Shown here: positions 2,495 through 5,939 of the stretch, in pieces
Position numbering within the stretch: the stretch's first letter is position 1
Layout of the letters: each line of letters begins with the position of its first letter
IMG/VR virus record: IMGVR_UViG_2541047837_000002
DNA: 17,927 bases
Source: a virus
Taxonomy: Duplodnaviria > Heunggongvirae > Uroviricota > Caudoviricetes
Reading direction: 5' to 3' (one strand)
Notes under the pieces: generated by a model
What the model saw: the letters and a program-made list of their open reading frames with translations, nothing else
Told to the model about the DNA's origin: nothing
The model's database searches: none
Made by a program: the position numbers and the translations under genes

Positions 2495-2755
2495 GTAATC
2501 CGCCTCCTTTGGATCAATACGAGTTGATATTTGTTACAAAACATTTTGATTTTATCAGATTTTTTTTTATTGATAAGTGTCAATTGATTAGCTGGTATAG
2601 AGTGAGACATAAAGAAGGTCAGATCTGTATCAGTAGTGATGCAAAAATCCCACAGTTTCATGGAATTTTTGCATTTAGAGCCGTGAGATAGGGTGCCTTA
2701 TCGACCTTACCCTGGCAACCGATTGACGGGGGATTACTCCCCCGTCGCGGTTTCC

Positions 2756-2896
2756 TTACTGCTTACACTGTAAGAACGCCGCAAACTCCGCTCCCCAGAA
2801 ACTCATCCGTATTTCGCACAGCGAACCGTGCAACATCCAGATGATGAGGATTACCGTCACGCAGAACGTGATGGCTGTAAGCGATTTTTGCGACAT
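2756..2896 (-). CDS. Hok/Gef-family type I toxin (small membrane peptide)
   Basis: 46-aa ORF missing from the ORF track: MSQKSLTAITFCVTVILIIWMLHGSLCEIRMSFWGAEFAAFLQCKQ. It has one TM helix followed by the family-typical SLCEIR ... E-x-AAF-x-x-C motif. GGAG RBS upstream (aaaaGGAGcaagtgctATG). Confidence 0.7.
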   Translation of the reverse strand: MSQKSLTAITFCVTVILIIWMLHGSLCEIRMSFWGAEFAAFLQCKQ

Positions 2897-3086
2897 AGCA
2901 CTTGCTCCTTTTCCGGAGAGGCGCTAACCTTTCACTTGCTTAGGGTAGACGGTTAGGGCCTCGGTTAAACAAAAGTGTTTTCCGGGGCCTTTCCACATCT
3001 GGCCTTCGGGTATTCCCTCCGACCATCAGCCGAAAGGCACCCGCGCGTAATCTATCGCTTTTTTGTTACTCCGGCAATTCTGCTTG
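2897..3086 (-). promoter_or_regulatory. Putative hok mRNA leader (mok-like upstream ORF, expected Sok antisense target)
   Basis: By analogy with hok/sok loci the 5' leader should hold a short overlapping or upstream reading frame and the antisense RNA gene. A 24-codon upstream ORF (MWKGPGKHFCLTEALTVYPKQVKG) ends about 25 nt before the hok ATG, and a hairpin (gacggggg-attact-cccccgtc, 2725-2746) sits in the 3' UTR. Exact RNA ends cannot be determined from sequence alone. Confidence 0.3.
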
Positions 3087-3347
3087 TTAATTCTTAGGTA
3101 AAGGCAAACTCATCTGATTGTTTCCCCTGTGTGAAGCTGGTAGCTCATGCCACGGGATACCTTCTGAAGAGTGAACGCCGGAGGCGTGTTTCGATGTGAA
3201 TTTATGGAAAGCTTCCAGTGTTGAGAAGCATACGCCGCATTCCAGATTGTTACACTGGTAATACTTTTGCCGCACGGTGTTTGAATCATTTTCCGGACGA
3301 CTTGTGCGGATACGGGCAGATGCGCCACAAAGCGGACAACGGAACAT
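3087..3347 (-). CDS. ogr: Ogr/Delta-family zinc-finger late-gene transcriptional activator
   Basis: 86-aa ORF starting MFRCPLCGASARIRTSR ... YYQCNNLECG, i.e. the Cys4 arrangement and N-terminal signature of P2 Ogr (MFHCPLC...RTSR...QC.N..C). GGGAGG RBS upstream. Confidence 0.85.
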   Translation of the reverse strand: MFRCPLCGASARIRTSRPENDSNTVRQKYYQCNNLECGVCFSTLEAFHKFTSKHASGVHSSEGIPWHELPASHRGNNQMSLPLPKN

Positions 3348-3538: not shown

Positions 3539-4561
3539 ATGGGAAGAGATATAACGCTGTACCCTAAAAAAGCAACTAGAAACGAACTTAAAAATTACCT
3601 TGAAAATTTAGGTTTTAAAAGGTGTAAACATTTGTGGGAATGGCCCCAAGGAACGTTGAATTACTCTTGGTTTGATGATACGGACTTCAAATCTACAGAT
3701 GGAGTTTCGGCTGATATATATCCTGTTTCAAATGACGAACTACACATATCTGGTAATAAATGGGCATTGCATGTGCGTAATTTATATAGCGCTAGTTGGC
3801 ATGATGTAAAAATGCTTAATGATGTTCTAAAAGGCGCACGGAGTCTTTTTGGTGGAACACTTATAGGTGATTATGGGAAAAATAGGTACGCTCCTCTATG
3901 GAAGGATTCTAGTAGTCCGATCAGTCGTGGCATTTCTTCAATATTTAATCATGTCCATCATGAGATTTCCGCTGTTAAACATGCCTTACCTGAACCTTCT
4001 ATTAAATTAAACCTACCGGAAGATGGCGGCTTATCCGAATACTTTGATTACATGCAATGTATGGATCCCAGTAGAGTTATATATAATGGATTAGTACCTT
4101 TTGCGGTTGCTATGTTTGAATATTTTTTCTCTAGAGCTTTTCAAATACTTATAAAGTACGATCCTTTCGCAATAGCAAAAAGAACATCGTATAAGCAAAA
4201 AGTTGATTTTGATATTCTGCTTGAGATAGAGAAAGGAAATATTTCAATAGAAAGTGTTATTGCAAGAAATTACACTTTTCAAAACTTAACCCACCTAAAC
4301 AAAGCATATAAAGAGTGGCTGGATATAGATGTGAGAGCGATTCTTTATAAGAAAAAAAGAATTGGAAAATCAGTTGATTTTCTTGAGAATCGAATTTCTG
4401 AAATCATACAATATAGACATGGGATAGTTCATCACTTTGAGTTGGATAGGACCTTAAATCGGGATGGATATATTCATATATTAGATGCGATAGAAAAAAG
4501 CATAATTGAATTTATCCATTACATAGAAGGCAAATACAAATTTAAATTAAATGCGTATTAA
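3539..4561 (+). CDS. Hypothetical cargo protein with a C-terminal HEPN-like Rx4H motif; candidate abortive-infection or defence protein
   Basis: 340-aa ORF, conspicuously AT-rich compared with the flanking ogr and D, with an AT-rich promoter-like upstream region and an AGGTGA RBS. C-terminal segment ENRISEIIQYRHGIVHHFELDR contains R-x4-H. No other family signature recognised. Confidence 0.75.
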   Translation: MGRDITLYPKKATRNELKNYLENLGFKRCKHLWEWPQGTLNYSWFDDTDFKSTDGVSADIYPVSNDELHISGNKWALHVRNLYSASWHDVKMLNDVLKGARSLFGGTLIGDYGKNRYAPLWKDSSSPISRGISSIFNHVHHEISAVKHALPEPSIKLNLPEDGGLSEYFDYMQCMDPSRVIYNGLVPFAVAMFEYFFSRAFQILIKYDPFAIAKRTSYKQKVDFDILLEIEKGNISIESVIARNYTFQNLTHLNKAYKEWLDIDVRAILYKKKRIGKSVDFLENRISEIIQYRHGIVHHFELDRTLNRDGYIHILDAIEKSIIEFIHYIEGKYKFKLNAY

Positions 4562-4681: not shown

Positions 4682-5782
4682 TCACTCTGTTTCTGCTATC
4701 CATTCCGGGATTTTTGCCTCAAGCTCAAGCTGTGTGGTAAAGCCGCTGTTATCAATGGTGTGCTCGGCTTTTGCAATAATCCAGTCCTGATTATCAATCT
4801 CGCTTTTAAAGCCTGTTACCGTGCCATGCATTTCGGGGTAGAGTTCTGCGCGTCCGCGTGCCAGCATGATGGAGAATGATGCGGCTCCGCGTTGTAGCTG
4901 CTGCCACTTTGCCGCCGCTGCGCGTCTTGCTGCCTGCTCGTTCTGATAAGTCTTGCGTAACACAAACACATTGCCTTCCGCGCCTTCCATATAATCACCT
5001 TCACGGCTGCTGCTTTTCTCCTTTTTCGATTTGCGGCGTTTCACGCTGACTTTTTTCTTTTTCCCGTAATTAAGATCAAGCCAGTAGGCGCGTACACCCG
5101 TATACGCCTCGCGGTCAGCAATGCGAAACTGATGGCGATCGCCGCTGCTGCGTGTGATGGCAAACGATGGCAATGGTTTTCCCTGCGCGTTCACGCCACC
5201 GCCTGGCATGATGAATAACAGATTACCGCTTTTTACCGTGGTGATTGCGCCCAGCATTTCCGCCATGCGCGTAAGGAAGGACATGTCACTTTCTTCGGTC
5301 TGGTCGGCGTGGTCGATTTCGATATCCATCAGCATTTCGCTAATTTGCGGTTTCAGACCGTACCGATGAGCGATGGCGGATACCACACGCTCAACGGTCA
5401 CATCATGCCAGGACACCTCACGTTTAACGTTAAATTCATCCCGAAAATCTGCGCTTCTGGCCGAAATGGTCAGCCTGTCCGGCGGTCCTTCGTGAGCGAT
5501 TTCATCAACAATGTAAGTGCCTTTTTCTGTCAGCGGTTCTCCTTTCCAGCCAATGAGAACCGTCAGGCGCGCGCCCCGTGGCGGTAGCTGCAACTGACCA
5601 TCCGCATCATCCAGCGTGATGGTGAGCTGGTCCGCCTCAAATCCCCGGTTGTCGGTCAGTGACAGGCTCATCAGGCGCTCTGCCACGCCTGACAGCGTTT
5701 TACCCTCCGCGAGAATATCAAAATCCGGCATTTTCACGGGGTCTGTGCCCTGACTGAGCAATTGCATGGTGGTGTCGGTCAT
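4682..5782 (-). CDS. D: P2 gpD-like tail protein
   Basis: The ORF track gives 410 aa from a non-ATG start. The likely true start is the ATG at 5782 (MTDTTMQLLSQGTDPVKMPDFDIL...), which has a GGGAGGG RBS 5 nt upstream. Size and sequence are consistent with P2 late gene D. Confidence 0.85.
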   Translation of the reverse strand: MTDTTMQLLSQGTDPVKMPDFDILAEGKTLSGVAERLMSLSLTDNRGFEADQLTITLDDADGQLQLPPRGARLTVLIGWKGEPLTEKGTYIVDEIAHEGPPDRLTISARSADFRDEFNVKREVSWHDVTVERVVSAIAHRYGLKPQISEMLMDIEIDHADQTEESDMSFLTRMAEMLGAITTVKSGNLLFIMPGGGVNAQGKPLPSFAITRSSGDRHQFRIADREAYTGVRAYWLDLNYGKKKKVSVKRRKSKKEKSSSREGDYMEGAEGNVFVLRKTYQNEQAARRAAAAKWQQLQRGAASFSIMLARGRAELYPEMHGTVTGFKSEIDNQDWIIAKAEHTIDNSGFTTQLELEAKIPEWIAETE

Positions 5783-5939
5783 CTGTTCCCTCCCTGTGCG
5801 GCATGGTCGCATGTGCGTGCGGAGGGGGTTACTGCTTTTTGTTGTCGCCGGGTCGGGAGAACGGCGCAGGGGTGAGATTACGCGCGTGGTGGGTGATGAT
5901 TGTTGCCGAATCATTTAACGGATACAAGGGGCTGAAGCT

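Follow-up and report, generated by a model that had tools for sequence, protein, structure and literature searches.

Among the Hok systems described so far, hok/sok of plasmid R1, the chromosomal hokA of E. coli and hokW-sokW of the Stx2 phage Sp5/933W are the references with which the locus reported here is best compared. The R1 module is also known to exclude other phages. Its mRNA has a long leader with alternative tac/fbi and tac/ucb pairings, a closed hok ribosome-binding site and a stabilising 3' hairpin, and the promoter of its antisense RNA overlaps the region of the hok ribosome-binding site (PMC9841398). In R1, hok is translated only when mok is translated up to the hok ribosome-binding site (PMC9841398). 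A recent survey of Hok peptides grouped the family into clusters at 60% identity and found that 42 of 45 assayed homologues were toxic, the three named non-toxic ones belonging to clusters other than the one relevant here, cluster 72 (bioRxiv 10.1101/2025.08.07.668861). The survey dealt with coding sequences only and explicitly placed Mok, Sok and the mRNA elements outside its analysis (bioRxiv 10.1101/2025.08.07.668861), so that the RNA anatomy given below is added detail.

The DNA analysed here, referred to as the window, is a stretch of 17,927 nt from a Caudoviricetes record (IMG/VR IMGVR_UViG_2541047837_000002). Between ogr on one side and the attachment junction within pdxB on the other, it very probably carries an intact type I toxin-antitoxin module of the hok/sok family, borne as cargo by a P2-like prophage (Peduoviridae). 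Up to position 1117, inside pdxB, the sequence has 100% identity to E. coli K-12, taking in flk, the intergenic region and 23 nt from the start of pdxB; the host identity ends there, and the DNA from 1118 onwards is foreign. The junction is followed by genes for a VasI/TagO-like protein (1264–2157) and a zinc-ribbon membrane protein (2162–2494), after which hok is reached. On the other side lies an ogr/Delta-like late-gene activator (3087..3347, minus strand; Pfam Ogr_Delta, 5.1e-14, with a zinc finger), which is annotated in RefSeq. It is on the same strand as hok, and its stop codon is 10 nt upstream of the predicted hok -35 box; a terminator scan called nothing between the two genes. Further along are a 340-aa protein with a weak HEPN match (3539–4561) and an intact gpD (4682–5914). 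The preliminary description had spoken of a prophage remnant. This is not borne out by the window, in which gpD and the sheath, tube and tape-measure ORFs that follow it are all intact. The gene order indicates that hok is prophage cargo and lies in the variable part that separates ogr from the attachment site. The hok locus is free of IS elements and rearrangements, and PADLOC-DB gave no match for Hok or for three neighbouring cargo proteins.

The hok gene (2756..2896, minus strand) has 46 codons (MSQKSLTAITFCVTVILIIWMLHGSLCEIRMSFWGAEFAAFLQCKQ) and is supported by the ORF list, Pfam, PHROG and RefSeq. The peptide has one transmembrane helix, an SLCE motif and a second cysteine at residue 44. 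It matches Pfam HOK_GEF (PF01848) with 30.1 bits against a cut-off of 22 (E 3.7e-07), the alignment covering profile positions 5–42 of 42, and it matches PHROG 251 ("MokW-like host killing") at 2.5e-23. When placed in the survey's own alignment, it retains all seven residues that are conserved in the family logo: M1, C16, T18, L30, C31, E32 and E41 of the logo correspond to M1, C12, T14, L26, C27, E28 and E37 here. The ORF is intact in 72 of 73 unique homologous modules. The peptide is a true member of the Hok/Gef family, and a chance resemblance is ruled out. The preliminary description was borne out on several points here: the 46-codon Hok/Gef ORF running from 2896 to 2756, the GGAG ribosome-binding site (2908–2905, 8 nt before the ATG), the 3' hairpin (2746–2725) and, in the profile search that it had suggested, a HOK_GEF score above the cut-off. 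The best NCBIfam models are HokA and Hok, and both scores are far under their cut-offs (NF007290, the HokA equivalog, 35.8 bits against 89; the Hok subfamily model NF007279, 23.6 bits against 73), which makes the peptide a Hok family member while excluding it as an orthologue of HokA.

HokA is nevertheless the closest characterised peptide, with 43% identity over 47 residues by BLASTP against a HokA reference sequence that agrees closely with entry 1397 of the Hok survey. In both HokA and the window peptide the two cysteines are encoded directly, so that TadA editing is not needed (bioRxiv 10.1101/2025.08.07.668861), but the genomic context differs and is mobile here. R1 Hok is 39% identical over 31 residues (BLASTP). 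It shares the small, single-helix build and the SLCEIR and AAF motifs. In contrast to R1 Hok, which has 52 amino acids, the window peptide has 46, with its second cysteine hard-coded at residue 44, and the module resides on a prophage instead of a plasmid. Like the window module, hokW-sokW is a prophage-borne hok/sok, and PHROG 251 groups both; RefSeq phage records carry the label "MokW-like host killing" for genes of the window type. However, HokW has 51 amino acids, starts with MKQQKAM and belongs to another peptide cluster. The relative of the window module in Stx phages (82% DNA identity) is a separate 46-aa gene and not HokW. Within cluster 72 of the Hok survey, entry 1628 is the exact window peptide, 72_1621 is its V15A variant and 72_1589 is the Stx-phage type (bioRxiv 10.1101/2025.08.07.668861). 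The latter two were both cloned for the toxicity assays (bioRxiv 10.1101/2025.08.07.668861), and the one-residue variant 72_1621 is toxic by elimination.

The preliminary description had called the locus unannotated. This is correct for the program-made ORF track in which the gene was missing, but not for RefSeq, where it is already named "Hok/Gef family protein" (WP_000078920.1) beside ogr in IHE3034. A region of 451 nt is 100% identical in many E. coli chromosomes, and about 1750 of 5426 complete E. coli genomes, or about a third, carry a homologous module, in up to nine copies per genome. It was also found in 198 phage records and on 35 plasmids. Among these, the P2-like Peduoviridae P88, 500465-2 and P884B11 carry copies of 93–99.8% identity, and many Stx phages carry the relative at ~82% DNA identity; further contexts include lambdoid tail regions and a site beside serS with three tandem copies. 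The module is thus already known, annotated and catalogued, as ordinary cargo of P2-like E. coli prophages. With the gene in RefSeq, the cluster catalogued and a near-identical peptide assayed for toxicity, the locus carries little weight as a discovery. It does illustrate that small type I toxins are easily overlooked by ORF tracks, even when the module is common.

The limits of the module were obtained from its relatives. In alignments of copies from unrelated contexts, similarity is lost just upstream of the -10 box (TAnATT) and just after GGCACCC, and BLAST hits of the module stop at the same limits, so that the coinciding ends define a unit of ~350 nt. Computation shows this module to be one conserved, mobile unit. 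Including the -35 box, it runs from ~3077 to 2691, with limits that coincide with the -10 box and fbi, which amends the preliminary description. We infer a hok promoter at 3049..3077 (minus strand), with a -35 box TTGCCG (3077–3072), a 17-nt spacer and a -10 box TAGATT (3054–3049), and a start site at G3042. The TAnATT box is kept across genomic contexts in the alignment of relatives, and TTGCC(G/C) recurs at a 17-nt spacing from the -10 box in three differing contexts. A strict consensus promoter scan did not call this promoter, which matches at 8 of 12 positions. The predicted full-length hok mRNA would comprise 352 nt (2691..3042, minus strand), the homology block ending exactly at both of its termini. 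A terminator scan called nothing after fbi, where there is no clear intrinsic terminator. A weak A-tract/hairpin/U-tract arrangement can be discerned by eye at ~2668–2635 on the minus strand, outside the conserved block.

The leader of this transcript carries the RNA hallmarks of hok/sok, as RF01794, RNAfold, RNAalifold and the antisense hairpin indicate, and the earlier assignment to a hok/sok-type locus is thereby upheld. With the full model, Rfam RF01794 (hok/sok) matches 3042–2883 on the hok-sense strand at 51.9 bits (E 1.5e-10), somewhat below the gathering score of 59; what it recognises here is the 146-nt leader of hok. At gathering thresholds, Rfam gave no match anywhere in the window. 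Other matches under permissive settings, IhtA, sR1 and CsrC, were dismissed as chance (E 0.17–8.4).

RNAfold gave -158.9 kcal/mol for the 352-nt RNA (3042–2691). In the minimum-energy fold of the full length, nucleotides 1–15 pair with nucleotides 337–352, which joins the 5' end, tac (GGGUGCCUUUCGGCU, 3028..3042, minus strand), to its complement at the 3' end, fbi (GGUCGAUAAGGCACCC, 2691..2706, minus strand). The ucb element (GGCCCCGG, 2982..2989, minus strand) is paired with a GAGG segment (CCGAGGCC), and the GGAG of hok is shut by an upstream CUCC (nt 135–138 with nt 125–128) within a hairpin at 2905..2920 (minus strand). When 22–39 nt are removed from the 3' end, nucleotides 1–11 pair instead with nucleotides 50–59, that is, tac with ucb. 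In this truncated fold a hairpin of the form GAGGC.CUAACC/GGUUAG.GCCUC appears (2918..2962, minus strand), which is the predicted Sok target, and the hairpin of the ribosome-binding site is reduced to 2 bp. The consensus structure of RF01794 pairs the same ucb segments as RNAfold. A 3' stem-loop (GACGGGGGAGUAAUCCCCCGUC, 2725..2746, minus strand), identified by RNAfold and by the terminator scan (2724–2747, plus strand), would cap the processed hok mRNA, whose predicted length is ~318 nt. All these features, including the stabilising 3' hairpin, are shared with R1 hok/sok (PMC9841398). The tac/fbi pairing with the alternative tac/ucb pairing after trimming, which is characteristic of R1-type modules, was found in silico only.

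The structure was compared across 42 representatives that are 70–100% identical to the window. Standard pairs were found in 89.3% of cells against 38–44% with the partners slid, and 29 pairs were changed on both sides against 8–17, a comparison with the slid controls that is inflated because the structure was derived from the window sequence itself. The covariation score was reached by none of 500 shuffles. Pairing amounts to 96% in the terminal tac/fbi helix (helix 1), to 89% in the adjacent helix 2 and to 93% in the hairpin of the hok ribosome-binding site (helix 9); the changes in helices 1 and 2, some one-sided and some two-sided, preserve it. In the 3' hairpin (helix 17) the value is 99.7%, with 5 of 9 pairs changed on both sides. 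Helix 8 of the full-length form joins the 3' UTR to the loop of the target hairpin, and 7 of its pairs are changed on both sides. The best-supported helices are the 3' hairpin, the long-range helix between target loop and 3' UTR and the extension of tac/fbi. RNAalifold independently retains the terminal helix and the 3' hairpin, as well as a helix between the hok AUG region and an invariant UUGCGGCGU in the coding region. Both arms of the Sok-target hairpin are invariant in the 42-sequence alignment. As for tac/fbi itself, the core 7-bp helix is almost invariant and so yields no covariation, and the pairing is supported by the adjacent helix 2 and by divergent copies: in two of these (L035 and L083) both strands are changed, and the variants of the fbi strand (GGUCGA, GGCUGA, AGCCGA and GUCAGCC) all retain pairing. 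The compensatory changes in the alignment show selection on RNA structure. A few single-sided variants of the core (GGATGCC, GGGTGTC and GGCATCC) are uncompensated.

The antisense partner can be outlined in a similar manner. A Sok promoter is predicted at 2902..2930 on the plus strand. Its -35 box TTGCTC (2902–2907) coincides in part with the hok ribosome-binding site, and 17 nt separate it from a -10 box TAACCT (2925–2930). As in R1, the promoter of the antisense RNA, here a predicted one, would thus overlap the region of the hok ribosome-binding site (PMC9841398). The consensus scan left this promoter uncalled, its match to the sigma-70 consensus being poor, and we infer the assignment from the sequence; all or nearly all of the 42 aligned sequences have GGTTAG and CAAG unchanged. 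The predicted Sok RNA would have ~55 nt, roughly from 2938 to 2992 on the plus strand, with a single-stranded 5' tail and a terminator hairpin (2956–2990) followed by UUU; it would not extend over about 2900–3080, as had been suggested. The hairpin folds with -20.2 kcal/mol (z -4.4) on the plus strand but with only -14.1 kcal/mol (z -2.4) on the sense strand, where the G.U pairs of the plus strand become C.A mismatches. In all 60 unique modules, too, the antisense version is favoured (means -23.0 and -13.6 kcal/mol). UUUC or UUUU follows the hairpin in 22 of the 24 distinct hairpin sequences listed, and UUC in two divergent copies. In sequence, the 5' tail of the predicted Sok complements the target hairpin along its 5' arm and in its loop.

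Taken together, these elements suggest the following course. The promoter abutting ogr would produce the 352-nt hok mRNA (3042 to 2691) with tac clamped to fbi. In the clamped form both the Sok-target region and the hok ribosome-binding site would be base-paired, and the mRNA would be stable and silent. Slow trimming of the 3' end to the stable hairpin at 2746–2725 would strip off fbi and allow tac to pair with ucb, upon which the GAGG target hairpin may form and the hairpin of the hok ribosome-binding site may weaken. Sok (~2938–2992, plus strand) would then bind the target hairpin and bring about decay of the activated mRNA. If Sok were lost, Hok would be made, enter the inner membrane and depolarise or kill the cell. 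Translation of Hok is probably under the direct control of RNA refolding and Sok.

What the module does for its carrier is a separate matter. By analogy with described systems, it could plausibly keep the prophage or its cargo in the cell, aid lysis when the prophage is induced or exclude other phages. One heading of the Hok survey states that hok is not enriched near defence systems (bioRxiv 10.1101/2025.08.07.668861). An alternative to prophage stabilisation and host defence is that the module mainly serves the phage by bringing lysis and phage release forward once the prophage is induced, as hokW-sokW does in the Stx phage Sp5. There, mitomycin C causes SokW to vanish and HokW to be made, a response that depends on RecA, and when the locus is deleted growth arrest comes ~40 min later and half as much phage is released (PMC8621323). 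The arrangement in the window would suit such a role: ogr is followed directly by hok on the same strand, the scan called no terminator between them, and the order recurs, an ogr-like ORF being found within 450 nt upstream in 67 of 115 copies in a sample of IMG/VR contigs. This recurrence in P2-like phages makes it worth asking if the phage benefits from the toxin when it is induced. However, HokW represents another Hok cluster in a lambdoid phage, and the module also occurs in non-phage contexts, in tandem by serS and on plasmids, which indicates that its role is not tied to one host element. A main role in lysis is possible but doubtful.

The switch itself differs from that of R1 in one respect, the mok frame. 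The preliminary description had pointed to a mok-like frame upstream of hok, and an ORF of 24 codons does exist there (2924..2998, minus strand), in the same frame as hok and ending at a TAG inside the Sok -10 box. However, it stops 27 nt before the hok ATG without overlapping the gene, and it is unconserved. Across 74 unique modules the ORF has anything from 0 to 78 codons, in any frame; 11 of them have it reduced to ATG-stop, and the ATG is missing in 5. The AUG is kept in the other 69, but this AUG and the first codons lie within ucb and the Sok-terminator sequence, which accounts for their conservation. In both folds, a hairpin hides the AAGG ribosome-binding site of the ORF. The three frames of the window are open over 27, 43 and 35 nt ahead of the hok ribosome-binding site, with no ATG, GTG or TTG in these stretches, and no ORF with such a start reaches that site in 47–49 of 73 unique modules, the window among them. 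R1 uses a GAGG as the mok ribosome-binding site; this GAGG is retained here, where it takes part in the ucb/terminator pairing, but the place after it that is equivalent to the R1 mok start has no start codon. As candidates for mok, the ORF from the conserved AUG, an ATG/GTG/TTG ORF overlapping hok and an ORF reaching the hok ribosome-binding site were each rejected as unconserved; the target loop also offers a mini-ORF, GUG-AAA-GGU-UAG, which was discarded since Stx-type copies have GUA at that place.

Judged on the sequences compared, mok is absent as a conserved frame: unlike in R1, no mok frame overlaps hok or reaches its ribosome-binding site, and of the defining hok/sok features looked for it is the one that is missing. 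This conflicts with the R1 rule; either the mechanism differs here or expression may be poor. A tentative proposal, which we would not rate as likely, is that the whole 46-aa Hok cluster is mok-free, with refolding and Sok switching hok, and that read-through from ogr may couple the toxin to induction. Such read-through would be possible because hok is immediately downstream of ogr with no terminator between them. If mok is truly absent from cluster 72, the textbook coupling to mok is not universal in the Hok family.

A further alternative is that the module works as in R1, with the upstream ORF (2998–2924) as mok and its translation opening the hairpin of the hok ribosome-binding site by coupling. 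The UAG of this ORF in the window is 3 nt short of the CGCCUCUCC arm that closes the hok ribosome-binding site, so that a terminating ribosome could melt the arm, and R1 does depend on mok translation up to that site (PMC9841398). That the ORF exists and that its AUG is widely kept also agree with such coupling. However, the varying length and frame, the modules in which no ORF reaches the hok ribosome-binding site, the buried AAGG site, the lack of a start codon after GAGG and the explanation of the AUG by ucb and the Sok terminator all speak against it, and R1-type coupling is regarded as improbable.

The preferred reading remains an intact module that is probably switched by refolding and Sok. 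That the locus is instead an inactive relic, comparable to the chromosomal hok loci of E. coli K-12, is very unlikely: although a passage of the Hok survey cites hokA, hokB and hokC as having given no post-segregational killing (bioRxiv 10.1101/2025.08.07.668861), and although the mok frame is missing and both promoters are weak by consensus, the ORF, tac, fbi, the 3' hairpin and the antisense hairpin are all intact at a locus free of IS elements and rearrangements, representatives of cluster 72 are toxic (bioRxiv 10.1101/2025.08.07.668861), the ORF is kept in all but one of the 73 unique modules alongside compensatory changes in the RNA structure, and hundreds of genomes, as well as viable phages such as P88, carry the same elements in identical or almost identical form.

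The Rfam family RF01794, which is named 'sok antitoxin', matches the window at 2883–3042 on the minus strand, which is the sense strand of hok, the 46-codon Hok/Gef-family toxin ORF. The 3' end of the RF01794 consensus coincides with the hok AUG. At this locus, the family therefore picks up the toxin leader (the 5' region of the hok mRNA) and not an antitoxin RNA. The start codon and first codons of hok, AUGUCGCAA (2896–2888, minus strand), are predicted to pair with UUGCGGCGU, which lies within the FAAF codons of the same ORF (2777–2769, minus strand). Both arms are without variation across 42 relatives, the homologous modules aligned to the window copy, which suggests that the predicted pairing acts as an additional block of translation initiation within the coding region.

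The hok module lies very close to its upstream neighbor ogr, the gene of an Ogr/Delta-like late-gene activator. Just 10 nt separate the hok -35 box from the ogr stop codon (3078–3089, minus strand), and no terminator was called between the two. It is therefore possible that ogr transcripts continue into the hok leader, which would produce hok RNAs with an extended 5' end. The module can also be present in several copies, up to a counted maximum of nine per genome. Beside serS in E. coli 2013C-3033 (300–1900 of that locus), three copies stand in tandem with 71–87% identity to the window copy, and each has its own leader and its own fbi, the 3' end element predicted to pair with the mRNA 5' end.

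Between ogr and the gpD-like tail gene, a 340-aa ORF (3539–4561, plus strand) runs on the strand opposite to both. Its sole match was a weak, sub-threshold one to HEPN RiboL-PSP (E 1.2e-4; 22.5 bits versus 28.4), and searches of PHROG, NCBIfam and PADLOC gave none; it is possibly an abortive-infection or defence cargo gene. The gpD-like gene itself is intact (4682–5914, minus strand; 410 aa), whereas in the otherwise identical region of E. coli IHE3034 the annotation lists a version of 786 nt and, in addition, a fragment marked as a pseudogene. This difference indicates that the window's source strain carries the less decayed prophage.

The window matches E. coli K-12 across flk and the intergenic region and for 23 nt into the start of pdxB, and identity stops after position 1117. 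This end of identity (junction at 1095–1118) places the P2-like prophage inside pdxB at its 5' end, which is an unusual location for such an insertion. Unless a substitute promoter is provided by the phage at the other junction, the insertion should cut pdxB off from its own. The stretch from the junction to hok contains two cargo genes, both on the minus strand. One encodes a zinc-ribbon protein with hydrophobic segments (2162–2494; 110 aa; phrog_6586), the other a VasI/TagO type VI secretion-associated domain protein (1264–2157; 297 aa; PF11319, 2.5e-25; phrog_1848), so that a P2-like prophage here carries a domain associated with type VI secretion.
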